Of a DNA stretch of 64,000 bases, positions 1,250 through 62,359 are shown in pieces; position 1 is the stretch's first letter, and each line of letters opens with the position of its first letter. The DNA comes from Nanoarchaeota archaeon SCGC AAA011-D5 (GTDB lineage Archaea; Nanobdellota; Nanobdellia; Pacearchaeales; GW2011-AR1): NCBI GenBank assembly GCA_000405225.1, contig ASMP01000002.1, forward strand, positions 70,073 through 134,072. The letters are read 5' to 3'. The notes beneath the pieces are model-generated. The model ran no database searches, had not been told where the DNA came from, and was given only the letters and a program-made list of their open reading frames with translations. The position numbers and the translations under genes are program-made.

Positions 1250-3109
1250 ATGATAAAAAATAAGAAAGGAGTGAGCATAATGATCGGTTATGTTCTTCTG
1301 CTAGTCTTCGCGGTGATAATGGGTGTTATAACCTTTGCCTGGCTCAAGTCCTATGTTCCCGCAGAAGCTCTGAATTGCCCCGAGGGCGTCTCAATTTTCA
1401 TTAACGAGGCAACATTCAACGATTCAACATCTGAGCTAAATTTAAGCTTGGTAAACAACGGAAGATTTGATATTGCAGGATATTTCATACATGCATCTGT
1501 CTCTGAACAGGAATTACCGACGATAGATTTGTCCTCTTATCTCAACGAGGGTTTTAGCGGAAAGAAATTAGGAACTTCTGTAATCATTGGGAATGCAGAT
1601 ATACTTTTTGGTCAAGAAGGGAACCTTTTCGAAGCAGGAGACCGGGAAAAGAATATTTTTAACATTCCTCCCGGTATTACTAAAATTCATTCTATCAGGA
1701 TAACTCCTACAAGATTCCAGGAAGAAAATGGCAGGCAAAGGTTCGTGAGTTGTGGCGATGCAAAAGTGCAGCTGCAGCTGGCCACAGCGCCTATAGTATG
1801 CATACCTTCCTGCACCGGAAAGGCCTGTGGAGGCGATGGCTGCGGGGGAAGCTGCGGAAGTTGTAATTCAAGTTTCTTTTGTGATGCTAGTAGCCAGTGT
1901 ATTTCAACAAATTGTGTGCCTGCTGCAAATTCAACACTTTCAGAAATTTGCGGTTCTTTCGTTTGCGGAACAGCTCAGAATGGAACCTGTGGCAATGTAA
2001 GTTGCGGGACATGTACAGGAGGCAATTCATGCAACCAGACATCGGGGCAGTGTGTTTTCATAAGTTGCGTGCCTGCTTCAGATCCAACACTTTCAGGAGT
2101 TTGTGGTTCTTCTGTTTGTGGAACAGCTCAGAATGGAACCTGTGACACTGTAAGTTGCGGGACATGTACAGGAGGCAATTCATGCGACCAGACAACAGGT
2201 CAGTGTATTTCAGCAAATTGTGTGCCTGCTTCAAATCCAACACATTCAGGAGTTTGCGGTTCTTCTGTTTGCGGAACAGCTCAGAATGGAACATGTAGCA
2301 CCGTAAGTTGCGGAACATGTACAGGAGGTGCTTCATGCAACCAGGCAACAGGTCAGTGTGTTGCAGCAAGTTGTGTGCCTGCTTCAAATCCAACACTTTC
2401 AGGAGTTTGTGGTTCTTCTGTTTGCGGAACAGCTCAGAATGGAACATGTAGCACTGTAATTTGCGGGACATGTACAGGATTTCCAATAGTTGCTGCATCT
2501 AAGACATCGTCAAGGTCTAGTAACGCCGCTGACGACGTAATTACAATGCCCACCGGGATTGTGGCGGGTGACTTGCTTCTTGTCATCCACGCCACAGATG
2601 CAGGTGGAAGTGCAACACGAACATGGAGTGGTGGATTTACCGAAATTCTGGACAAGAGCGCAAGCTCGAATATAGGGGTGGCTTGGAAAATTGCGGCAGG
2701 GGGAGACTCCCTTACTGTCACTAAGTCAGCCTCAGAGAGATTCTCAGCCATTGCCCTTAGGATTACTGGAGCTCATGCATCGTCTGCTCCTAAGATTTCT
2801 ACCACTGCGACAGGGGAAAACACTGACCCTAATCCCGATTCTGTTACTGCATCCTGGGGCGCGGAGAACAATCTCTTTATCGCCTTTTATGGGCAAGATA
2901 CAAATATTACTGATACGATAGTTGATGCATGGCCAACGAACTATGACGACAATCAGATTCAAGGTGTTTTTGTTGCCTCTGCTGGTGAACCCAACATGGC
3001 AACCCGGGATTTGGCAGCGGCTACAGATGACCCTGGAACATTTACCATCAATACGTTGATAGGGTGGAGGGGGTGGCGGGCTGGAACAATAGTTGTTAGA
3101 CCAGCATAA
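1250..3109 (+). CDS. Pilin-anchored Cys-rich repeat surface protein/adhesin
   Basis: KKG/VSIMIGYVLLLV archaeal pilin N-terminus, 51-aa Cys-rich repeats, distinct C-terminal domain; start at ATG 1250 preferred (ORF track 1232). Confidence 0.75.
   Translation: MIKNKKGVSIMIGYVLLLVFAVIMGVITFAWLKSYVPAEALNCPEGVSIFINEATFNDSTSELNLSLVNNGRFDIAGYFIHASVSEQELPTIDLSSYLNEGFSGKKLGTSVIIGNADILFGQEGNLFEAGDREKNIFNIPPGITKIHSIRITPTRFQEENGRQRFVSCGDAKVQLQLATAPIVCIPSCTGKACGGDGCGGSCGSCNSSFFCDASSQCISTNCVPAANSTLSEICGSFVCGTAQNGTCGNVSCGTCTGGNSCNQTSGQCVFISCVPASDPTLSGVCGSSVCGTAQNGTCDTVSCGTCTGGNSCDQTTGQCISANCVPASNPTHSGVCGSSVCGTAQNGTCSTVSCGTCTGGASCNQATGQCVAASCVPASNPTLSGVCGSSVCGTAQNGTCSTVICGTCTGFPIVAASKTSSRSSNAADDVITMPTGIVAGDLLLVIHATDAGGSATRTWSGGFTEILDKSASSNIGVAWKIAAGGDSLTVTKSASERFSAIALRITGAHASSAPKISTTATGENTDPNPDSVTASWGAENNLFIAFYGQDTNITDTIVDAWPTNYDDNQIQGVFVASAGEPNMATRDLAAATDDPGTFTINTLIGWRGWRAGTIVVRPA
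1913..2479 (+). repeat. 153-bp (51-aa, 8-Cys) tandem coding repeat, ~3.7 copies
   Basis: Units start at 1913, 2066, 2219, 2372 (CVPAS..CGSSVCGTAQNGTC..VSCGTCTG). Confidence 0.95.
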
Positions 3110-3336
3110 GCAGCAGGCGCCATAAACCCTGTCGCCTCATTCTGAACAAATCCTGCAGACAATGTAAACAGGAGCAACTCGTCTGTTACAGTAAAATTTG
3201 AGAGTAAAGCAGATGCCGACAACGACGATTTCTATTTTGACGGGTTAAAAATTACAAAAATAGGATAATTACATTGTGGGACAGAAACATCCCACAAATT
3301 TATAATATGTTGCTCTAAAAATAGCACTATATTAGA

Positions 3337-4080
3337 TTATTCTTTAGCTGATTTCCATAATATTTCAAATACATTACGATAAGAATCTGCGACGTGTTTG
3401 TTGTCAATTATGGTAACTATTGGTTTATCCGTCCAAATAACAAAAGAAACCTTATCACCATAGATAGTTGTTTCAGTTAAAGGTTCAAATTCGGTGTCGA
3501 AGAATCTGACTTTAATTTCCTTATGATGTATTATTTTTTTCCAATGTTTAAGAGATTTATGGAAAATCATTCGCGCCTTAACGCCAGATTCATGCTGTTT
3601 GGTATGAAGATTTTCCCAGTAAAAGTCAGGAATAATTTTCTCAGATTGGAGAGGGCTTCCAAAAACACAATAGTCTAATTTATTATCTATTATCTCGGAA
3701 TATATTCTCTTAATTCCCGCAACTCCACTAAAAACTGCAGCTGTTTCTTTTAGAATCCTATGTTTTTTTAATAAGACTACCTCTTTAGAGATTTTATAGG
3801 CTAATTCTTTTTGCTTATCGAGCTCTTCTTTTTTCTTTTCAATAAATTCGACTAATGCTGAAGGGTCTTGAATCTGGTATACTCTATGATTTTTTTCTAT
3901 TATTTTGGATATCATTCCTTTGTCACATAATCTTTCAAGAGCTTGGTAAGTGTTAGCTTTGTAGAATCCTGTTTCTTGTAGCAATCCTTGAACATCAGAA
4001 GCTCCAAGTTTTAACAGGGTTAGATATAAAGTCGCCTCTGCTTGAGACAATCCTAATTTCATTAAATCTTCTTTGTCCAT
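3337..4080 (-). CDS. TrmB-family transcriptional regulator
   Basis: LGLSQAEATLYLTLL wHTH plus C-terminal effector domain. Confidence 0.85.
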   Translation of the reverse strand: MDKEDLMKLGLSQAEATLYLTLLKLGASDVQGLLQETGFYKANTYQALERLCDKGMISKIIEKNHRVYQIQDPSALVEFIEKKKEELDKQKELAYKISKEVVLLKKHRILKETAAVFSGVAGIKRIYSEIIDNKLDYCVFGSPLQSEKIIPDFYWENLHTKQHESGVKARMIFHKSLKHWKKIIHHKEIKVRFFDTEFEPLTETTIYGDKVSFVIWTDKPIVTIIDNKHVADSYRNVFEILWKSAKE

Positions 4081-6885: not shown

Positions 6886-7374
6886 ATGAAAAGGGAGATT
6901 GCTGTGAAGAGGGATATGAAGCAAGGAGTTTCTCCCGTAATTGCGACCACGCTCCTGATTGCGATGGTCATTGTAATAGGTCTTATAATTTTTTTATGGT
7001 TTCGCGGATTTACGCAGGAAGCTATCACAAAATTTGGAGGTGTGAATGTAGAACTTGTATGCGGAGATGTGCAGTTTGATTCCAGTTATTCTTCAGGGAA
7101 TCTTCTTCTTTCAAATACTGGAAATGTTCCTATCTACAGTTTCAAGCTGAAAGTGGAAAAACCAGGGAGCTTTGAAACTCTGGATATAGAGAACATTTCA
7201 GGCAACTGGCCAAAAACAGGGCTTAACCAGGGAGGGGTTTTCTCAGGAGACATAAGTTCTTCTGCCCTCGGTGCAGAAAAAATAACGGTGATTCCTGTTC
7301 TGAGGGGAACTACAGAGTCTGGGGCAAAAACCCATGCCTGCGATGAGCAGTATGGGGAAGAAATAATCTTATAA
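6886..7374 (+). CDS. Archaeal type IV pilin
   Basis: QG/VSPVIATTLLIAMVIV classic archaeal pilin N-terminus. Confidence 0.85.
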   Translation: MKREIAVKRDMKQGVSPVIATTLLIAMVIVIGLIIFLWFRGFTQEAITKFGGVNVELVCGDVQFDSSYSSGNLLLSNTGNVPIYSFKLKVEKPGSFETLDIENISGNWPKTGLNQGGVFSGDISSSALGAEKITVIPVLRGTTESGAKTHACDEQYGEEIIL

Positions 7375-7420
7375 AAATTGCTTAGCTAAAATTAATAAAC
7401 TATTTTTCACTAATGAGGTT

Positions 7421-7945
7421 ATGATAAAAAACAAAGGCGGAGTTTCAACTGTTGTGGAAACTATCCTGCTGATAGCATTAACGATAGGAATCGTGGCTAT
7501 TGTATGGACAGTGGTCAGCAATCTGGTAGAGAAAAATATCAGCAGCTCTGAATCCTGCTTCGGGGTTTTTGAAAAAGTCACCTTAAATCCGAGATACACA
7601 TGCTACAACAATGTTACTGGAACTGGTAATGACGAGGTCTGGTTTTCCATAAGCCTTGGCGACATAGAAAAAGTTGATGACATTCTCGTCGCAATATCTG
7701 GAGAGGGGAATTCTGCAAGTTTCAAGATAATGGAAGACAAACCTGCCGGACTTTCATATTATCCTGACAGAACAAGGCCGGTCGTAATCCCCAGAAAAAG
7801 TCAGGGTCTCACCTATATTTATGAACTTCCTTCTTCTTTTACCCAGACACCTGAAAGGATAGAAATAGCTGCAATAGTCGACGGAGAAGTTTGCGGAAAT
7901 ATCAATCCTCTAGAACAGTTCGAGAGCTGCTCCTCACTGGGCTGA
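7421..7945 (+). CDS. Archaeal type IV pilin
   Basis: KGG/VSTVVETILLIALTI. Confidence 0.8.
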   Translation: MIKNKGGVSTVVETILLIALTIGIVAIVWTVVSNLVEKNISSSESCFGVFEKVTLNPRYTCYNNVTGTGNDEVWFSISLGDIEKVDDILVAISGEGNSASFKIMEDKPAGLSYYPDRTRPVVIPRKSQGLTYIYELPSSFTQTPERIEIAAIVDGEVCGNINPLEQFESCSSLG

Positions 7946-38073: not shown

Positions 38074-38384
38074 AGCTAAGGCCATTCCAAAAGCACAGCT
38101 GTTCTCGTTGTTGCCATGGTTGTTCGAGTTAACATTCAACCTGTTGTTGCCCAAGTTCCTGTTGGAATTCAGACTCGCAACCCAGCTATGTAGCCAGTTT
38201 ATCTCATGAAATTTTTATTTTTCATGTCAGGAATCTTGCCTGCACAGAGCAAAATTTAATTTGCACACCATCGCTTCAAGTTTCGCAAATATTAGATATA
38301 AAAACTACTATTTGTCGCGATTGAATTTTATGACTTAAAATAAACCTGAATAATGCCTTAATAAACTGGCGTGTGGCCTTAGCT
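38074..38384 (-). ncRNA. Putative DGR template RNA (structured 5' domain + TR), bounded by long-range pairing
   Basis: 11-bp IR 38374-38384/38074-38084 encloses TR; nested 10-bp IR 38361-38370/38193-38202; hairpin 38205-38226; no avd ORF. Confidence 0.6.
38087..38183 (-). repeat. DGR template repeat (TR)
   Basis: 97 nt, 30 adenines on minus strand (12 AAY codons in target frame); differs from VR only at adenines. Confidence 0.97.
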
Positions 38385-38447
38385 CAAGCTTTTTTTAAGC
38401 TCTGCTAAGACAAATAAATAAGTAAAAACAGGTTTAAATTTTTTGCG

Positions 38448-38464
38448 AACCAGCTTCGCTGGTT
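38448..38464 (-). other. DGR target-recognition hairpin (7-bp stem, GAA loop)
   Basis: AACCAGC-GAA-GCTGGTT immediately after the target stop codon. Confidence 0.85.
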
Positions 38465-39165
38465 TACTTCAACACCCCAAAAGCACAGCAGTACTCGTCG
38501 CTGCCACGGTCGTACGAGACAACATCCAACCCGTCGTCGCCCAAGTCCCCGTCGGAACCCAGACCCGCAACCCCTGCTTCTGGTGTTTTCAAACTTGATA
38601 AATCTGGAACCCAAATGTGAGCTTTTTTATCTGGGTGTTTTGATGCAAGTTCTGCAAGTTTTTCAGCTCCTTCTTCACCACCAGCCCATGCAACAAAGTA
38701 AGGATGCTTTCCTACTTCTTTCCAGCTAACAGGACCTTGCCTAAGATGTTCAAAAGAAACTTGCGCACGGCTTTCGGCTAATCTTTTTAGCAAACCACCT
38801 CTATCAACAACAGAATTCTCATCAAATTCAGGATTATCTATAAAATGAGCAATTCTTTCTTTTGGAAGGTAAAGAATTCCTGTAAATCCTCTGAAATATC
38901 TATCTTTCATAATCTGATTAACTTCTCTTGCTTGAGGTTCATTGCCACTAAAATATTCATGAACAAAAGAAACTAATTCCGAAGTTGTTGGTTCTCTATA
39001 ACCAGTTGGATTTTCAGAAGAACCTCTTATTCGCCTTAAAAGATTCAGGGAATTTGCAGGGCCATAAAACGGATGCACCGCTGTTAAAATTTTTCCCTTG
39101 TGTGGAAAATCCATTTCTGTTCTTCCAACTCTTATTCTTTGTCTTGTGTCAGATTGAGTTTCCAT
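38464..39165 (-). CDS. DGR variable (target) protein, CLec-like
   Basis: C-terminal VR encodes VAGLGSDGDLGDDGLDVVSYDRGSDEYCCAFG. Confidence 0.92.
   Translation of the reverse strand: METQSDTRQRIRVGRTEMDFPHKGKILTAVHPFYGPANSLNLLRRIRGSSENPTGYREPTTSELVSFVHEYFSGNEPQAREVNQIMKDRYFRGFTGILYLPKERIAHFIDNPEFDENSVVDRGGLLKRLAESRAQVSFEHLRQGPVSWKEVGKHPYFVAWAGGEEGAEKLAELASKHPDKKAHIWVPDLSSLKTPEAGVAGLGSDGDLGDDGLDVVSYDRGSDEYCCAFGVLK
38477..38573 (-). repeat. DGR variable repeat (VR)
   Basis: Aligns to TR at offset 390: 19 mismatches (15 A>G, 4 A>T), none at the 67 non-A positions. Confidence 0.97.
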
Positions 39166-39243: not shown

Positions 39244-39639
39244 TTAAAACAATGCCCTAAAGAAAAGATTGCTGAAAAAGAGAGATATTTCTTCTTTGAA
39301 GAAAATAACGGCAGCCAGAACTCCAAATGAGAGAAGAAGAAGGGCAAAAAGTATGAATGTTATTGCTGTTCCTGTTCTGCTTGGTTTTTTTCCGTAGTTT
39401 CCGTATTCCGAAACTCTCTGGACAACTGTCTGAGCCGTCATAGGGGAGGGAATTTTCTGCTGCGGTTGCTGGAATTGCGGCTGGGGCTGATAAGTTGTCG
39501 GCATCTGCAAAACACTTGCGGCTTCTTCGATGTCTTCTTTCGAATAACCTGCATTAAAAAAACTGGTCAGAGCCTTTTCCAGAGGCTCTCCTTTGGAAAC
39601 AGCCTGCCTCAAGCCCTCAACAATCTCCTCTTTAGTCAT
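39244..39639 (-). CDS. Hypothetical C-terminally anchored membrane protein
   Basis: NAGYSKEDIEEA N-domain, Gln/Pro linker, TM helix. Confidence 0.6.
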   Translation of the reverse strand: MTKEEIVEGLRQAVSKGEPLEKALTSFFNAGYSKEDIEEAASVLQMPTTYQPQPQFQQPQQKIPSPMTAQTVVQRVSEYGNYGKKPSRTGTAITFILFALLLLSFGVLAAVIFFKEEISLFFSNLFFRALF

Positions 39640-51174: not shown

Positions 51175-51540
51175 GGGAAGAATTTTTTATATGAAATTAT
51201 AAAGTAGTAACAAAAGAGAAAGATTTAAATAGTAGAAGATTAGTAAAAATTTATGGAAAAAAATTTGGTAGATCTTGTTATAATTGGTAATGCTTTTGTT
51301 TTAGGTGGTGCTTTAAGTCAGTTAATGCTTTATGGTCTACACAAAGCAAGACTTTCAGAAAGAGAATTTACAACTGGTAAAGAAGAAACAAGAAAGTATG
51401 TAGAAAGAGTTCAAGAACTAAATAAATCTTCTCTAAGAAGAATAGTTTTTTATGGTGCGAATCTAGCAAATAGAAAATATTTAGAAAGTATTAAATAACA
51501 ATTCATATTCAACGTAAGTTGATTTCATAATTAATTCTTC
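51175..51540 (+). mobile_element. Inverted-repeat-bounded gene cassette, copy 1 (intergenic)
   Basis: Left end 51175-51197 identical to 58628-58650; right end 51503-51540 is 37/38 identical to 59102-59139. Confidence 0.8.
51253..51498 (+). CDS. Cassette cargo: hypothetical protein with N-terminal hydrophobic helix
   Basis: 81 aa; preceded by shared-promoter variant 51208-51231. Confidence 0.6.
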   Translation: MEKNLVDLVIIGNAFVLGGALSQLMLYGLHKARLSEREFTTGKEETRKYVERVQELNKSSLRRIVFYGANLANRKYLESIK

Positions 51541-51576
51541 TTGATTATTTTTATCAAACCTTGAACCACAACCAGC

Positions 51577-51959
51577 TCACTTAACAAACTCAACGTTTTC
51601 AATGTCTTTAAATTGTTTATCTCCAGTAAGGAATTTTGCATTGTTCTTTTTTGCTATAATATATCCTATACAATCAATATAAGATAGTTTTCTTTTTTAT
51701 TTAATAATTTGAATTCATTTGATTTTTTTATTATCTCATCTGAAATTTCCATTATTAGGGGCAGAAGAAAATCATAATGAAAATCGGCTTCTTTTTTACC
51801 TGCAGTACGCAATAAAAAGTAATGCAATTCCATTAAATTCAATTTTGTGGTAATAAAGTGGCCTTTTTTGTATAATTCATAATTCTTATTACGGTTAATT
51901 ATTTCAATTAAAGCATAAGTATCTAAGAAGTATGCCGTTTCTTCAAATGCTGTTTCCAT
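51577..51959 (-). pseudogene. vapC: VapC (PIN) toxin, frameshifted
   Basis: YFLDTYALI N-terminus; LSYIDCIGY..FLTGDKQF C-terminus lies in the -1 frame after an A6 run near 51690; stop at 51577. Confidence 0.85.
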
Positions 51960-52186
51960 TCTTTTTCCTCAAGATCCCATTCTTCTTTTCTCATCTCGTC
52001 TTTAAACTTCTGGGCATCTAATTTTAGATTCTTCAGGGAGCCAAAAATGGAAGAGAGATCTGTCTCTTTAATTATGCTTATAGACACTTTTTCGTTTTCT
52101 TTAAGTCTCTGTCTATCAACGATTTCCTTAGGTAAGATTATTCCCATAGAATTTCCCCATCTCCTTAATCTAACTTGTATTGTCAT
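51923..52186 (-). CDS. vapB: AbrB/MazE-type antitoxin (VapB)
   Basis: LRRWGNSMGIILPKEI. Confidence 0.9.
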   Translation of the reverse strand: MTIQVRLRRWGNSMGIILPKEIVDRQRLKENEKVSISIIKETDLSSIFGSLKNLKLDAQKFKDEMRKEEWDLEEKEWKQHLKKRHTS

Positions 52187-55476: not shown

Positions 55477-56921
55477 AATCCAGTTGATCCTGCTGGCGGC
55501 TGCGGCTCTCTGGTTTGCACTTAGACATGCAAGTTGTTTCTCTTAGAAATAGGAGGAAAGCGAACTGCTCAGTAACACGTAGCTAACCTACACTTAGGTC
55601 AAGGATAACCTCGGGAAACTGAGGCTAAACCCTGATAAATGTGAGACCCTGGAAAGAACTCACATTCAAACTCGCGCCTAAGGATGGGGCTGCGGCGGAT
55701 TAGGTAGTTGGCGGGGTAATAGCCCACCAAGCCTGTGATCCGTAAGGGCTCTTAGCGGAGAGGCCCTGAGAGGGAATCTGAGACACTATTCCCAGCCCTA
55801 CGGGGTGCAGCAGTTAGGAATCATCTGCAATGCGCGAAAGCGTGACAGTTTGAACCAGAGTGCTTCTCAATTGAGAAGCTTTTGCCAAATGTAAAAAGTT
55901 TGGCGAATAAGGACTGGGTAAGACGAGTGCCAGCCGCCGCGGTAATACTCGCGGTCCAAGTCGCAGCCACAATTATTGGGTCTAAAACATCCGTAGCTTG
56001 TCTGGTAAGTTCCTTGTGAAATCTTATCTCTTGAAGATGAGGCGTGCGAGGAATACTGCCAGACTAGAGACCGGTAGACGCAGGAAGTATGTTCGAAGTA
56101 GCGGTAAAATGCTTTAATCTCGGACAGACTCACAACAGCGAAGGCATCCTGCGAGAACGGTTCTGACTGTCAGGGATGAAGGCTAGGGGCGCAAAGTGGA
56201 TTAGATACCCATGTAGTCCTAGCAGTAAACACTGCACACTAAACATCAGTACCTCCTCGAGAGGCATTGGTGCTGCAGCGAAGGCGAAGAGTGTGCTACC
56301 TGGGAAGTATAGTCGCAAGGCCGAAACTTAAAGGAATAGGCGGGGAGACACTACAACGGGTGACGCGTGCGGTTCAATTAGATTCTACACCGTGAACCTC
56401 ACCAGGACCGACAGCAGAATGAAGGTCAGTCTGAAGGGCTTACCTGACACGCTGAGAGGAGTTGCATGGCCGACGTAAGCCTGTGTCGTGAGATGACCTG
56501 TTAAATCAGGTAACAGGCGAGACCCACATGTATATTTACTACGTGTACAATATACAGATTGCCTCGGTAACGTGGATGAAAGCGTGGGCAACGTTAGGTG
56601 AGTACAGCCTGAATGCCCTGGGCGACACGCGCGCGTCAATGGTGGATACAGTGGGATGCGACTCCGAAAGGAGAAGCTAATCTCTTAAAGTCCATCTCAG
56701 TCCAGATTGAAGCTTGCAATTCAGCTTCATGACGCTGGAATCCGTAGTAATCGTTTGTTAGCAGCGAACGGTGAATACGTCACTGTCTCTTGCACTCACT
56801 GCCCGTCAAACCAACCAAGTTGTGTTATGGTGAAACCAGTTTTGGGAGAACCTTAGCATGGTGAGGTAGGTTAAGTCGTCACAAGGTATCTGTAGGGGAA
56901 CCTGCAGATGGATCACCTCCT
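55477..56921 (+). rRNA. rrs: 16S rRNA (archaeal, no intron)
   Basis: AATCCAGTTGATCCTG 5' end, GTGCCAGCCGCCGCGGTAA, 3' GGATCACCTCCT. Confidence 0.98.
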
Positions 56922-57074
56922 AAAATTTAAAGATACGAGACAAGAGAAATCACAACAAAATAATTGTTTCTACATACTCATCTAGTTTCAGAAAAGTCCA
57001 AGTGGAAAACGGGCAAGCGTTTAGTTTTTAATAATAAAAAATTTAAAAACAACTGCTGGCTCATTTTTTGTTAT

Positions 57075-57145
57075 GGGCCTGTAGTCTAATGGTAAAACAC
57101 TTCGCTTGCACCGATGAGCTCCGAGTTCGATTCTCGGCAGGTCCA
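57075..57145 (+). tRNA. tRNA-Ala(UGC), CCA not encoded
   Basis: Cloverleaf with TGC anticodon, G3:U70 pair, A73; single mismatches in D and anticodon stems. Confidence 0.92.
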
Positions 57146-57171
57146 TAAGTTTTTCTGAAATAAATTAGTTA

Positions 57172-57273
57172 ACTGAAAACCACCTGCGGGTTTTTCACAA
57201 TTCCTGCAGCTAGGTTAGATCACAAATCATATTCACTGAAAACCACCTGCGGGTTTTTCACAATTCCTGCAGC
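57172..57273. repeat. 39-bp direct repeat x2 in ITS
   Basis: 57172-57210 = 57235-57273, separated by 24 nt. Confidence 0.9.
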
Positions 57274-58627
57274 CGTGGACGTGAAAACATGGTGAGGGAA
57301 GAAGTTCCTTTATCAGTTTGAGAAAATAACTCACAATTATTTTCAATGAGATAAGCAACGAATGGTTTTCCTGATTTAGAAGGACATACTATTACCGACG
57401 CTGTTAGATGGATGGCTTGGTTTTGGTTTCGATGAAAGACGTGGCAAGCTGCGATAAGCTTGGGGGAGCCGCATGCAAGCTTTGATCCCAAGATTTCTGA
57501 ATCGTGCACCCATGTTTACATGGTCTGCAAGAATACGCCGGGAATTGAAACATCTTAGTACCGGCAGGAAGAGAAAATAAATTAATGATTCCCCTATTAG
57601 CAGAGAGCGAAAAGGGAAGAGGGCAAACCGAATCTCCTCTTGAAAGGGAGGCAGAGATGTGGTGAGCGTAAATTCCTAAGTCGTCGAGTCAAACTTCTCT
57701 GGAATGAGAGGCCTTGGAGAGTGATAGCCTCGTAGACGAAGATGATATGGAGTTGCTTTAAAGAGTAGGGCTCCCTGGATTGGGGGTCTGAATACGGCAG
57801 GATTAACTGCCAACCCTAAATAAAACCAAAGTCCGATAGCGCACTAGTACCGCGAGGGAATGCTGAAAAGAACCCGTAACAGGGAGTGAAAAGATCTGAA
57901 ATCTAACAGTTACAGTTTGTTACTGCCCTTTCCTCTTCGGAGGATTGGGGTTGTAACGTACGTTTCGAAGAACGAGCCAGGGAGTTTATTTGTGTGGCGA
58001 GGCTAATCATCTATAATGAGTAACCGAAGCGAAAGCAAGTTGGAAACAGCGAGAGTCACACGAATCAGACCTGAAGCCAGGTGATCTAATCATGGGCAAG
58101 GTGAAGTCTTCCGAAAGGAGGATGGAGGCCTGAACCAGTGTTGTGTACATGCACTTGGATGATCTGTGATTAGGGGTGAAAAGCCTATCTAACCTGGTGA
58201 TGGCTGGTTCCTGCTGAAATATGCCTCCGTATAGTCTTGTCTAGCTTGTCGACGGTGTAAAGTACGGATAAAATTTGCAGAGGCTAATGCCTACGGAATT
58301 TTTTCCAACTCAGAATCTGTCGACTGCATAGGACAAGAAACAGGGTGTGTATGTAAGATACACCTCCGAGACCCAAAAAAGGGAGACCAGAGTTAAGGTC
58401 CCTAAATTCATGCTAAGTGCGACAAAAGGTGTCCTGGACCTGAGACACTAGGGATGTAAGCTTAGAAGCAGCTATCATTTAAAGAAAGCGTAACAGCTCA
58501 CCTATCGAGGCCCAAGGCCCTGAAAATGGACGGGGCTAAGCATGGTACCGATACTCTGGAGGCACTCGGTTTAAAATAGTATAACAAAAATCAAAGATTT
58601 TTGTGCGTCTGCCAAGATGGTAGGCGC

Positions 58628-59140
58628 GGGAAGAATTTTTTATATGAAATAGGAAAAGAAAAGGTTTTTAAACTTTAAAGTAACAACAAAATTATGAATT
58701 TGAAGACGCTCCTTACAACAAAAAAAGATGAAAGAATAATGATGGATTTTGCTAGAGGAAAGATTAATTATTTAGAGGATGGTTTTCTTCAAAAAAATTT
58801 CCCAGACTTGTTTAGAAATCTTAAAAGTTATCGCGGTAGATGGGATGAGTTTGGAGAAGAACTTGAAAGAAGGTGTATAGAAAGAACAAGAGATATTTCA
58901 CAAAGAAAGGTAGATTATGGTGCAATACTTCATAATGTTGGAGTTGCTATTCCATTTTATTTTTTTACTGCACTCGTTAATATTGTTGGTGGTCTTGGTG
59001 GGGGGATTCATAAAACCCAAGAGATGCTTGATGAGGATTTAAGACCATATATGAAACCAACTTATAAATTGGCAAATTCTAATTAAAATATAATTCACAA
59101 ATCATATTCAACGAAAGTTGATTTCATAATTAATTCTTCC
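58628..59140 (+). mobile_element. Inverted-repeat-bounded gene cassette, copy 2 (inside 23S)
   Basis: Ends match 51175-51197 and 51503-51540; left and right ends pair 9 bp + 8 bp. Confidence 0.8.
58694..59086 (+). CDS. Cassette cargo: hypothetical 130-aa protein with hydrophobic segment
   Basis: Intact ORF with upstream TTTTAAA box; no LAGLIDADG/HNH/GIY-YIG motif seen. Confidence 0.7.
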   Translation: MNLKTLLTTKKDERIMMDFARGKINYLEDGFLQKNFPDLFRNLKSYRGRWDEFGEELERRCIERTRDISQRKVDYGAILHNVGVAIPFYFFTALVNIVGGLGGGIHKTQEMLDEDLRPYMKPTYKLANSN

Positions 59141-59838
59141 TGTACTATACAGAGTGTTCTGGTAAGCAGGCGTCTTTTCTGCGTCGAAGCTTCTTCGAGA
59201 GAAGGGGTGGAGCGGAAAGGAATGAGAATCCTGGTGGTAGTAGGATGTGATTTCTCTGAGAAAGAGAAACGTCGAAAGGGTAAGGTTTCCTTGGCAATAT
59301 ATTTTAGCCAAGGGTTAGTCAGCGCCTAAGTTGTGCCCTAACAGAGTACGACGATGGACAACAGGTTAATATTCCTGTACTGATCAAATTTTACATTTTA
59401 GGAAAGCTTTCGGATAAGCAAGCACCCGGAAGGGTGTTCTGGGAAAGAGACGGGGGGAGCGTAATGCAAAGATCTCTGTGAATTTTTCAGACAAAATTTC
59501 TGACTCCGAGAGCCAGTGAAAAGTTCTAGAGTTAAACGAGTTTGGTTAGCTGTACCCACAACCGACACTGGTGCCCTAGCTGAGAAGGCTAAGACGTGAA
59601 AGGAAAAACCAACTAAGGGAATTCGGCATATTGGTCCTGTAGCTTCGGCTGAAGGGATGTCTATCTTTGTGCTTCGGTTCGCAAGAATTTTAGGTGCATC
59701 GGTAGATTACAATAACAAAGATGGCCCGACTGTTTACCAAAAACGTAGCCAAGTGCTAATCTGTAAAGACTTGTATACTTGGTGAGCCCTGCCCAGTGGC
59801 GGTGTCTGAAACCCCTTTTCAAGGGGGCTAATGCCCGT

Positions 59839-59875
<37 letters not shown>

Positions 59876-60519
59876 GTAATGCCTTGTCGTCTGAATGGCG
59901 ACGTGCATGAATGGGTTAACGTGGTTGTCACTGTCCCTAGTTGGGACCTTCTGAACACACTTCGTGGTGAAAAGGCCACGGACGCCTAGTGGGAAGCGGA
60001 GACCTTGTGGAACTTTACTGCAACTTGTTGTTGTAATTTTAAGTGGAATGCATAGAATAGGTAGGAGCGTCGAGTCCCTCTTTTCGGAGGGGGAGGAGCG
60101 AAAGTGTAATACTACCCATTTTTATTAGAATTGCTTACCGTTTACGGAACAGCAGCAGGCGGGCAGTTTGGCTGGGGCGGCGCCCTGTCGAAAAGATATC
60201 GATAGGACCCAAAGTCAAGCTCATCCGGCTTGGAAACCCGGAGTTGAGTGCGAGGGCAAAAGCTTGACTGACTGTATTCTGAAAAGCAAGGAATGCAGGG
60301 ACGAAAGTCTGGCCTAGTGAACCCACGTGCTTTTTTAATAGAAGCCGTGTCTGATAGAAAAGTTACCCCAAGGATAACAGGCTTGTCGCACCCGATAGTC
60401 CATATTGACGGTGCGGTTTGGTACATCGCTGTCGGCTCTACCTATCCTGCGCGTGCAGAAGCGTGCAAGGGTGTCGGAGTTCACGCATTAAAAGGTATCG
60501 TTAGCTGGGTTAAGAACGT

Positions 60520-60842
60520 CAAAAATAGACCCAATTAACAGATAAGTACTGAACAAAGAACTTGACAAGCAAAAAATAAATAATTAACGCGGCGTTGCGC
60601 ACGAGTAATTGTGCGAAAAATAAAATCAGCTCATATCGGTGGAGGCTTGATGTTTAAATTGATTAAACTGTCAGCATCATGTTAATACCGAGGGAAGTCG
60701 TAATTGACCCCGTAGAGACTTAGAGTTTAAAACTCTGGAGTTCTGCTGTTAAAAGCAGAGCTAAGACGCTGATCTCCGTTGTGCAAACAACGGATGAAGG
60801 TATAGTCCATACAACACAAAATCATAAGTGTTGAGTAATATA
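60520..60842 (+). mobile_element. Group I intron (IA-like) at 23S position 2593, no homing endonuclease
   Basis: Exons GAACGT|CGCGAGACAG; IGS 60588-60596; P3 60625-60630/60768-60773; R GAGACT 60715-60720; S AAGGTATAGTCC 60797-60808; P8 with GCAA loop. Confidence 0.92.
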
Positions 60843-61099
60843 CGCGAGACAGTTTGTATGATATCTACTAGGTGTGTTGTTGTCTGAGTGGAACGAACTT
60901 GTAGTACGAGAGGAACCAGGTTCGGGAGCCTCTGGTGAGCAGTTGTCATCTGGCAGGCTGCATAGCTACGCTCCATACGGATAAGAGCTGAATGCATCTA
61001 AGCTCGAAGCCGCCCGCAAAACGAGACAACTAAGGCCGTCATAGAAGATGACGTTGATAGAGTTGGGGTGTAAGATTCAAGCTTTTGGTGAGGCGAGAA

Positions 61100-61217
61100 T
61101 TTCAGCCCACAACTACTAAAAGCCTCAATTTGAATTTTCTTTATAAGAAGATTCTATAATATGTTATGTCCACACAATTCTTTTTCAGAAAACCATTCGT
61201 TGTTTGTTGAGTTTTTT
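61100..61217 (+). repeat. 23S 3'-end repeat copy 1 (118 bp identical to 61891-62008)
   Basis: Exact direct repeat; first 39 bp also at 62571-62609. Confidence 0.95.
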
Positions 61218-61890: not shown

Positions 61891-62008
61891 TTTCAGCCCA
61901 CAACTACTAAAAGCCTCAATTTGAATTTTCTTTATAAGAAGATTCTATAATATGTTATGTCCACACAATTCTTTTTCAGAAAACCATTCGTTGTTTGTTG
62001 AGTTTTTT
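61891..62008 (+). repeat. 23S 3'-end repeat copy 2
   Basis: Identical to 61100-61217. Confidence 0.95.
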
Positions 62009-62047
62009 TATGATAAATCTTTTATACTTATATTTCCTTGTCTGTTC

Positions 62048-62359
62048 ATGAAGGAGTATTCTCTTTTATTTGATAAAGAATTTGTTAAAGCATACAGAAA
62101 ACTGGACAAATCGCTTCAGATAGAGGGAGACAAAAAACTTAAAAGATTAAAAATAAATCCAAGAGAGATTGGGAAACCTTTAAGATTTTTTCCAAATTTA
62201 TATGAATTGCATTTGAGGATGTACAGAATTTATTATGTGGTTGAGGAAGCAGAGATAAAGGTTCTCCTTCTGTCTATTTTGCACAAAGATGAGCAGGATA
62301 GATTTCTAAGAAGTCTAACAAAGGAAAGGATAAAGAGAATTATCGAAGAGAATTTCTAA
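62048..62359 (+). CDS. RelE/ParE-family toxin
   Basis: FDKEFVKAYRKL...NPREIGKPL...YELHLRMYRIYY; ATG 62048 preferred (ORF track 61952). Confidence 0.8.
   Translation: MKEYSLLFDKEFVKAYRKLDKSLQIEGDKKLKRLKINPREIGKPLRFFPNLYELHLRMYRIYYVVEEAEIKVLLLSILHKDEQDRFLRSLTKERIKRIIEENF

Follow-up and report, generated by a model that had tools for sequence, protein, structure and literature searches.

Why should an archaeal 23S rRNA gene carry a protein-coding segment in the loop of one of its helices, and what would become of this segment when the rRNA is made? The question is raised by a stretch of 64,000 nt from Nanoarchaeota archaeon SCGC AAA011-D5 (assembly GCA_000405225.1, contig ASMP01000002.1, positions 70,073 to 134,072 of the forward strand), the whole of which is referred to as the window hereafter. 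In its 23S rRNA gene, the apical loop of helix 45 (H45) is occupied by an insertion that contains an open reading frame (ORF) of 130 aa, named ORF-A. The original prediction, made from the sequence alone, described this locus as a protein-coding intervening sequence (IVS) in the H45 loop of an archaeal 23S rRNA, and its descriptive core proved right. The insertion belongs to a widespread and apparently undescribed family. In our estimate there is an even chance that it is the archaeal counterpart of the bacterial H45 IVS, namely an RNA scaffold that hosts a promoter-driven cargo gene and would be removed from pre-23S rRNA through the leader-processing machinery.

The insertion in H45 and its gene

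The window comes from a low-G+C archaeon, with genes including FttA/aCPSF1, Rad50/Mre11 and RNase J, and contains a single rRNA operon composed of 16S, tRNA-Ala and 23S (Rfam, ARAGORN). The 23S rRNA gene has a length of 3756 nt, as compared with 2987 for the Rfam model, and the local Rfam alignment leaves a block of 581 nt unaligned in the terminal loop of the hairpin CACUC (58563-67)/GAGUG (59152-56). This hairpin is H45, because GGUAAG...GGCG, the start of H46, comes directly after it. Related 23S genes were obtained by translating a stop-free rRNA stretch, searching the translation against a protein collection and fetching the contigs; the retrieved loci or contigs bearing related sequences are designated by L-numbers. 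Four of them (L004, L005, L006 and L008), whose 23S sequences are about 83% identical to that of the window, have an empty site: their alignment with the window breaks off after 58567 and is taken up again at 59152, across a 6-nt loop. The predicted boundaries, 58568 and 59151, are therefore exact. The G+C content of the insertion is 30%, as compared with 45-50% in the rRNA. Finally, a Logan contig assembled from run SRR3927433 contains the segment 58170-59778, with both junctions, at 100% identity, so that the suspicion of a chimeric assembly, raised in advance, was answered by a second assembly.

The structural elements of the insertion are listed in Table 1. The extension stem ATAGTATA/TGTACTAT consists of 8 bp with one G.U pair, and the cassette stem GGGAAGAAUU/AAUUCUUCC, which consists of 9 + 8 bp and encloses the ORF, was recovered in the minimum-free-energy fold (z = -2.7). 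Both stems had been predicted, as had two hairpins of 9 bp each; both hairpins are present, and only the first has this length, the second being of 10 bp including G.U pairs. The absence of a group I core, a clear bulge-helix-bulge (BHB) and a homing-nuclease motif had also been stated, and each of these absences held in our searches. No match to RF00028, the group I model, was found in 58380-59330 at E up to 1, and the E-value search of this region against Rfam gave the large-subunit (LSU) rRNA model and two chance-level matches only. One BHB candidate was found in the insertion (6+4+3 bp, with 3-nt bulges starting at 58594 and 59112), which is at about the chance level (roughly 0.2 expected in the search space) and competes with hairpin 1 and the GNRA hairpin; no conserved BHB was found across the 8 family members scanned. 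ORF-A carries no LAGLIDADG, HNH, GIY-YIG, His-Cys box or other nuclease domain by Pfam, PADLOC and PHROGs.

The predicted ORF itself is present, and its length was not reached in any of 5000 shuffles of the insertion (median longest ORF, 27 aa). A helical protein with one hydrophobic segment at about residues 76-104 is predicted for ORF-A, and this product is probably membrane-anchored; its single-sequence AlphaFold model (pLDDT 49.5) was too poor for a structure search. It gave no match in Pfam (E up to 10, so none to PF05635), PADLOC or PHROGs. Relatives of ORF-A were sought by a word-index search, by an exhaustive HMMER run over 1.8 billion representatives and by back-translated scans of contigs from genomes and metagenomes; besides ORF-A itself, only one was found, in L002. 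There, the homologue is a free-standing gene located between an mnmA-like gene and an apparent tRNA 3′ end (ARAGORN called no tRNA at this place). The two proteins are both 130 aa long and 55% identical without indels, with a ratio of nonsynonymous to synonymous substitution rates (dN/dS) of 0.35. Moreover, the TATA-like box TTTTTAAA of ORF-A has a counterpart in L002, aaggTTTTTAAA, at the same distance from the start codon. That distance is 29 nt between the TATA box and the ATG, as expected of archaeal mRNAs without a leader. The cargo gene thus appears to be transcribed independently from the internal promoter, and not only as an mRNA on the rRNA, given the TATA box of its own at the leaderless distance and the existence of a free-standing homologue. 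The original prediction had considered an mRNA nested in or carried on the rRNA; the reality of the ORF stands, and these two facts speak for more than a purely rRNA-carried mRNA. As a separate observation, codon 49 of the L002 gene (2224-2616) is an in-frame TGA where the window encodes R, and the protein stays conserved over the following 81 codons; a sequencing error, a recent pseudogene or recoding could each explain it.

A recurrent family and its link with the 23S leader

For a genome survey, the H44 sequence common to the relatives served as an exact pattern with which one genome per species was scanned. This gave 74 loci, nearly all labelled Pacearchaeota, Woesearchaeota or Nanoarchaeota. 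About 67 of them have a plain H45 with a loop of 4-8 nt, and 7 have insertions of 320-650 nt in the same place. All of these 7 insertions, and that of the window, finish with (TC)ACAAATCATATTCA, or at least (C)ACAAATCATATTCA, shortly before the 3′ strand of H45. When metagenomes were scanned for this motif followed by the H45 3′ strand within 13-43 nt, 62 more loci were obtained, and after the removal of duplicates there were 24 distinct complete insertions with lengths of 188-899 nt and G+C contents of 22-33%. Thus, what had been taken for a single oddity is instead one member of a recurrent family.

The insertion of the window shows all of the five features of this family: the H45 site, a GKUUUAAA-type loop, a closing helix, the arrangement of a TATA box, a 29-nt spacing and an ORF, and a 3′ AUCAUAUUCA with a helix. 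The loop is an asymmetric internal loop, having GGUUUAAA or a close variant on the 5′ side (GACAAU in a second class) and 1-3 nt (AUA, ACA) on the 3′ side, which amounts to a bulge of 5-8 nt on one strand only. The closing helix has 15-50 bp across the members, and its sequence varies from member to member without loss of complementarity. The mean duplex energy of this helix is -23.5 kcal/mol for cognate ends and -13.5 for non-cognate ends, and the cognate 3′ end ranks first as a partner in 12 of the 24 members and within the top two in 19. RNAalifold on 9 members gave 15 pairs, 6 of which show compensatory double changes. Two side hairpins between the parts of the helix occur only in some members (the window, L015/L098 and L145): hairpin 1 has analogues in L015/L098 and L145 and none in L110, and the hairpin-2 equivalents of L145 and L098 differ by compensatory changes.

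The apical loop holds the cargo, an ORF whose ATG is preceded by a TATA-like box of the type AAAGGTTTAWAWA. Counted from the first base of this box, the ATG lies exactly 29 nt away in 15 of the 24 members, and this spacing recurs in the two cassettes of the window (58665 to 58694 and 51224 to 51253), the second of which, copy B, is described below. The ORFs (61-211 aa) lie on the sense strand of the rRNA in all of the 23 ORF-bearing members. The 24 cargo proteins have no similarity to one another, and a Pfam scan of 18 of them other than ORF-A gave a single match, a response-regulator receiver domain in L111 (211 aa), the other 17 being without a significant match. The motif lies after the stop codon, at the 3′ end of every H45 insertion found. 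Its end, UUCA(A), is always helical: it either forms a local hairpin, UUCAAC-GNRA-GUUGA (the window, copy B, L110 and L118), or pairs with a conserved AUUGAU located just after the 5′ strand of the closing helix. The shortest insertion, L145 (188 nt), consists of the loop, the closing helix, the side hairpins and the motif-helix, with no promoter and no ORF, and its ends are about 88% identical to those of the 536-nt L098. Because L145 holds the scaffold without a promoter or an ORF, the scaffold is the core of the element, and the promoter-plus-gene unit is its cargo.

The motif also occurs in the 5′ leader of the 23S rRNA. Exact matches in the 64-kb window are limited to the leader, the H45 insertion and copy B, and the leader match lies about 150 nt before the mature 23S 5′ end. 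The leader motif with its adjacent hairpin was found in about 30 loci, 1200-1470 nt upstream of the H45 flank and 100-200 nt before the mature 23S 5′ end. The stems of the motif hairpins covary across the leaders and the inserts (UUCAC/GUGAA, UUCAAC/GUUGAA and UUCAUC/GAUGAA). Where the 23S gene is unlinked from the 16S gene, the motif is preceded by a TATA box at a distance of about 80 nt. The motif thus belongs to the transcribed leader, and its interpretation as a promoter was rejected. The motif, AUCACAAAUCAUAUUCA, includes two AUCA repeats, which resemble the GAUCA at the 3′ end of the small-subunit rRNA that is recognised by Nob1/Era-type factors. No sequence complementary to the motif was found in the 23S trailers. 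Two further candidates were rejected: the idea that GGUUUAAA was copied from the 23S 3′ trailer, as the trailers of 24 loci have no such motif, and a seemingly motif-bearing insert at a second 23S site in L050, which turned out to be an ORF of the LAGLIDADG type that matches the motif by chance.

Two other observations concern the leader of the window. The spacer between tRNA-Ala and 23S has an exact 37-nt direct repeat, CTGAAAACCACCTGCGGGTTTTTCACAATTCCTGCAG, at 57165-57201 and 57237-57273, the two copies of which flank the leader copy of the AATCATATTCA motif; the relatives have a short hairpin instead. The 23S processing stem (57350-57374/61185-61208) is a continuous leader-trailer helix of about 24 bp, and the fold predicted beside it (a 3x3 loop, a 4-bp helix and a 6-nt bulge) is not a canonical BHB.

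Copies outside the rRNA and probable exchange of cargo

The same cassette termini were found at a second place in the window, outside the rRNA. This copy B, which begins right after the stop codon of another gene, shares with the H45 cassette the identical 23 nt GGGAAGAATTTTTTATATGAAAT at its 5′ terminus and, at the other end, a 43-nt stretch (the motif, the GNRA hairpin and AATTCTTC) with 95% identity. Its ORF-B, for which no relatives were found, is different from ORF-A. Furthermore, L110 has the same termini in H45, lacks the two hairpins, and carries yet another ORF. A third case is seen in L131, in which a pseudo-H45 (7100-7640) occurs 3.3 kb downstream of a 23S gene that itself holds an H45 insertion. 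In this pseudo-H45, about 45 nt and about 50 nt of the 23S H44-H46 region flank a cassette composed of a promoter and a 79-aa ORF, and the 5′ and 3′ ends of the cassette come from two different subtypes, because of which the closing helix cannot form. Copy B, L110 and L131 thus indicate that cargo and scaffold parts are reshuffled by recombination. No target-site duplication was found at either copy in the window, no transposase or homing endonuclease was found with the cassettes, and the cassette termini were not found in viral contigs.

Table 1 Features of the rRNA operon, the H45 insertion and copy B in the window
Feature	Position	Strand	Remark
Copy B, second cassette outside rRNA	51175-51543	+	Same termini as H45 cassette
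Copy B TATA	51224-51231	+	29 nt before ATG
Copy B ORF-B, 81 aa	51253-51498	+	Copy B encloses its own promoter-plus-ORF unit
Copy B motif	51501-51511	+	Within 43-nt match
Copy B hairpin	51509-51522	+	GUAA loop
16S rRNA gene	55477-56921	+	Upstream of 23S
tRNA-Ala	57074-57146	+	ARAGORN; upstream of 23S
Motif in 16S-23S spacer/23S 5′ leader	57220-57235	+	16 nt identical to 59095-59110
23S rRNA gene, host of insertion	57384-61139	+	Rfam RF02540, archaeal LSU, 2069 bits
H45 5′ strand GGCACUC	58561-58567	+	Rfam alignment; relatives align to 58567
Whole insertion, 584 nt	58568-59151	+	Empty site in relatives; base composition
5′ internal-loop sequence GGUUUAAA, facing ACA at 59149-59151	58568-58575	+	GKTTTAAAR begins most family members
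Extension stem 5′ strand ATAGTATA	58576-58583	+	Sequence, fold; equivalent helices of other sequence in relatives
Hairpin 1, 9 bp, 3-nt loop	58584-58604	+	100% complementary; repeat search, fold
Hairpin 2, 10 bp including G.U pairs, loop AGA	58605-58627	+	Fold
Cassette (stem 2) 5′ terminus GGGAAGAATTTTTTATATGAAAT	58628-58650	+	Pairs with 59121-59140; 23/23 identical to 51175-51197; same in L110
TATA-like box TTTTTAAA	58665-58672	+	29 nt before ATG; conserved with L002 box aaggTTTTTAAA
ORF-A, 130 aa	58694-59086	+	L002 homologue; annotated in NCBI record
Conserved motif TCACAAATCATATTCA	59095-59110	+	Identical 16-mer at 57220-57235
GNRA-loop hairpin UCAAC-GAAA-GUUGA	59108-59121	+	Overlaps motif end; GUAA loop in copy B and L110
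Cassette (stem 2) 3′ terminus ATTTCATAATTAATTCTTCC	59121-59140	+	43-nt match, 95%, to 51498-51540
Extension stem 3′ strand TGTACTAT	59141-59148	+	Pairs with 58576-58583; sequence, fold
H45 3′ strand GAGUGUU	59152-59158	+	Rfam alignment; relatives resume at 59152

Proposed processing of the insertion and comparison with known systems

How the insertion would be handled can be outlined as follows. The apical loop of H45 contains a structured RNA scaffold made of the asymmetric loop, the long closing helix, optional hairpins and the 3′ motif AUCACAAAUCAUA with a helix starting at UUCA. A cargo module occupies the apical loop of this scaffold, with an archaeal promoter (B recognition element and TATA box) 29 nt before the ATG, from which the mRNA would be leaderless, and a small gene. 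The cargo gene would be transcribed separately from the internal promoter, and the rRNA polymerase would read through the insert. The machinery acting on the 23S leader motif may then recognise the scaffold and cut it out of the pre-23S rRNA, most likely without religation, because neither RNase III nor a BHB motif is at hand. This would leave the 23S rRNA in two pieces of about 1.18 kb and about 1.98 kb, with H45 and what remains of the closing helix keeping them together. Recombination between the conserved ends of the scaffold, or between the rRNA flanks, may exchange the cargo. Excision is favoured because the helix is kept by compensation, the motif otherwise occurs in a discarded part of the precursor, the composition is genome-like and the cargo is freely gained and lost. 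A more specific form of this proposal, which we put forward only tentatively and think less likely to be true than not, is that the H45 scaffold serves as a landing pad for promoter-bearing cassettes: the cargo would be swapped via the scaffold ends, the rRNA flanks or satellite copies, and the scaffold would be excised by machinery that recognises the AUCACAAAUCAUAUUCA-helix leader signal, giving a fragmented 23S rRNA without RNase III or the splicing endonuclease.

Several points weigh against the excision of the scaffold by the leader machinery. Excision, fragmentation and even the use of the internal promoter are all matters that we infer from sequence. No candidate nuclease was identified, and no RNase III signature was found in the 885 kb examined, which do not cover whole genomes. 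The leader motif could serve transcription, for example antitermination, and not cleavage. The duplex energies of the sense and antisense strands, by which pairing at the RNA level is compared with that at the DNA level, did not differ significantly (p = 0.27), so that the inverted repeats could act at the DNA level. Lastly, T5-T7 runs are archaeal termination signals. In their frequency the inserts are close to ordinary intergenic DNA (4.9-6.8 per kb), as compared with 1.4 per kb in the 23S exons, and T-runs as frequent as these fit poorly with efficient read-through.

These points leave room for other explanations, among which retention as an expansion segment deserves the most attention, although we consider it unlikely. 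The insert would then stay in the mature 23S rRNA, the cargo would be expressed from its own promoter only, and the closing helix would keep the insert out of the way of the ribosome. The maintenance of a strong closing helix and the lack of a cleavage motif of a known archaeal enzyme agree with this, and one report (PMC8708148, citing Gregory 1996) describes the tip of H45 as solvent-exposed and tolerant of unprocessed IVSs in bacteria. Nevertheless, the scaffold has a G+C content of 22-33% against 45-50% in the rRNA, its motif is otherwise confined to the leader, a discarded precursor part, and a cargo of 0-211 aa that is freely gained and lost is unlike a structural rRNA element. To our knowledge, the only archaeal route for removing a helix-closed sequence is cutting by the splicing endonuclease EndA with religation by RtcB, as in the other archaeal rRNA introns and processing stems, and the DPANN endonucleases are broad in specificity; the insertion might accordingly be a relaxed BHB intron, for which the 6+4+3-bp candidate with bulges at 58594 and 59112 could be cited. 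This is improbable, since that candidate is at the chance level, competes with two local hairpins and has no conserved counterpart, and since the conserved junction is a one-strand bulge of 5-8 nt and not two 3-nt bulges 4 bp apart.

A similarly low probability is assigned to a split rRNA gene, in which the operon transcription would stop within the T-rich insert, the cassette promoter would drive the 3′ two-thirds of the 23S rRNA with the ORF and the motif copy as its leader, and the two halves would join in trans via the closing helix. The sense-strand promoter in 23 of the 24 members, the leader-motif copy immediately before the 3′ rRNA half, the T5-T7 runs in the inserts and the long closing helix (20-50 bp) would all suit such a gene. 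However, L145 has the scaffold and the motif with no promoter, so that read-through must suffice at least there, and the 23S exons themselves hold four T5-T6 runs. The terminal inverted repeats, the second copy with the same termini in the window and the non-significant sense/antisense test would be expected of a DNA transposon, or an element like a miniature inverted-repeat transposable element (MITE), residing in a tolerant spot with only incidental RNA features. This reading is very unlikely, as there is no target-site duplication and no transposase, as the inverted repeats vary in sequence yet stay complementary, unlike transposon ends, as all the insertions occupy one loop in one orientation, and as the motif also belongs to the rRNA leader. 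An assembly chimera, conceivable in a genome taken as metagenome-derived, is hardly credible at all, because the second assembly spans both junctions at 100% identity and homologous insertions occur at the same nucleotide in dozens of independent assemblies.

Among known systems, the ORF-bearing bacterial H45 IVSs come closest. The ORF-bearing IVSs of Coxiella burnetii, Leptospira and Brucella (the S23p/23S_rRNA_IVP family) interrupt the same helix as the insertion of the window. That of Coxiella has 428-444 nt, a 28-bp closing stem formed from terminal inverted repeats and a sense ORF of ~13 kDa in the loop, and in Coxiella and Leptospira RNase III cuts the IVS out and no religation follows (PMC4990558). 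The bacterial and archaeal insertions have in common a similar size, a long stem at the termini, an ORF in the sense direction and a host with a single rRNA operon and a reduced genome (PMC4990558). On the other hand, the bacterial IVSs are cut by RNase III, and RNase III has been reported to be absent from archaea, which include the present hosts (PMC8708148); in these respects the background given in the original prediction, that H45 is a site of RNase III-excised IVSs in bacteria and that archaea generally lack this enzyme, agrees with both papers (PMC4990558, PMC8708148). The bacterial ORFs belong to one family and are apparently unexpressed, having no promoter and a weak Shine-Dalgarno sequence (PMC4990558), whereas each archaeal member has an unrelated gene with a TATA box. 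ORF-A, without a Pfam match at E up to 10, does not fall into the S23p/23S_rRNA_IVP family. We know of no bacterial counterpart of the 3′ motif shared with the 23S leader.

Other known systems are less close. The archaeal rRNA introns (BHB introns with LAGLIDADG ORFs, and the group I introns of DPANN archaea at LSU 1923/1931/2593) likewise lie in 23S genes and often have an ORF. The H45 insertions differ from them in the site (domain II), in having no group I core, no conserved BHB and no homing endonuclease, and in the cargo's own promoter. Group I introns have been reported in LSU genes of Pacearchaeota and Woesearchaeota, including the contig of L063 (MFWP01000012), for which only an LSU 1931 intron is given (PMC6125680). 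In Pyrococcus furiosus, helix 98 is excised from a circular pre-23S rRNA (PMC7758197), which gives a case of an archaeal LSU helix cut out without religation; it is another helix, and the abstract of that report mentions no ORF, cassette or shared leader motif. Integron cassettes are likewise small, mostly orphan and unrelated genes at one defined site, with imperfect inverted repeats in which the pairing and not the sequence is conserved. Here, however, no integrase and no attC/attI organisation were seen, and each cassette has its own promoter and stands alone at its site inside an rRNA helix; the likeness is a resemblance only.

In the literature searched, we found no prior description of archaeal H45 insertions, of the shared motif or of promoter-bearing cassettes in rRNA helices. 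There is a substantial chance that the processing route and the cassette behaviour of this family are new in kind. The ORF-bearing H45 IVSs, so far bacterial and RNase III-dependent, are hereby extended to archaea. As archaea are reported to be without RNase III, either there is a new rRNA-processing route, or the ribosomes tolerate up to 0.9 kb of foreign A+T-rich coding RNA. A signal of sequence plus helix common to the leader and the inserts offers a handle on the poorly known 5′ maturation of archaeal 23S rRNA. The most conserved gene of uncultivated Pacearchaeota and Woesearchaeota is at the same time a site of gain, loss and swap of promoter-bearing small orphan genes. On the practical side, H45 inserts disrupt binning by rRNA, primers and annotation in DPANN genomes, where the ORFs inside them are entered as ordinary proteins.

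Some minor observations were also made. The 23S gene of the window has a second insertion, at 60521-60842, which is absent from the relatives; it gave a weak group I match at 60576-60833 (RF00028, 17.4 bits, E 0.043, below gathering) and is a probable group I intron at an LSU 2593-type site, from which such introns have been reported in Pacearchaeota (PMC6125680). The 23S gene of L050 has a 580-nt insertion (1549-2128) with a LAGLIDADG-type ORF at the position equivalent to 59741 of the window and a 1.1-kb insertion (2253-3401) at that equivalent to 59864; therefore, the 23S genes of Pacearchaeota and Woesearchaeota can hold several unrelated insertions. Elsewhere in the window, an RT-16 RNA (RF03019) was found on the minus strand at 38185-38410, with 105 bits against a gathering score of 50; the ORFs upstream of it (38464-39165 and 39244-39639, minus strand) gave no Pfam match, and no adjacent reverse transcriptase was seen. 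A PIN-domain/MazE-like toxin-antitoxin pair occurs immediately downstream of copy B (51576-52186, minus strand), and its PIN ORF has 97 aa in the window as compared with 127 aa in the Logan contig of the same sample, owing to a 1-nt indel. A ParE-like toxin ORF (61952-62359, plus strand) comes directly after the rRNA operon. Judging from this ORF and the PIN/MazE pair, the rRNA operon sits in a region rich in small accessory genes.

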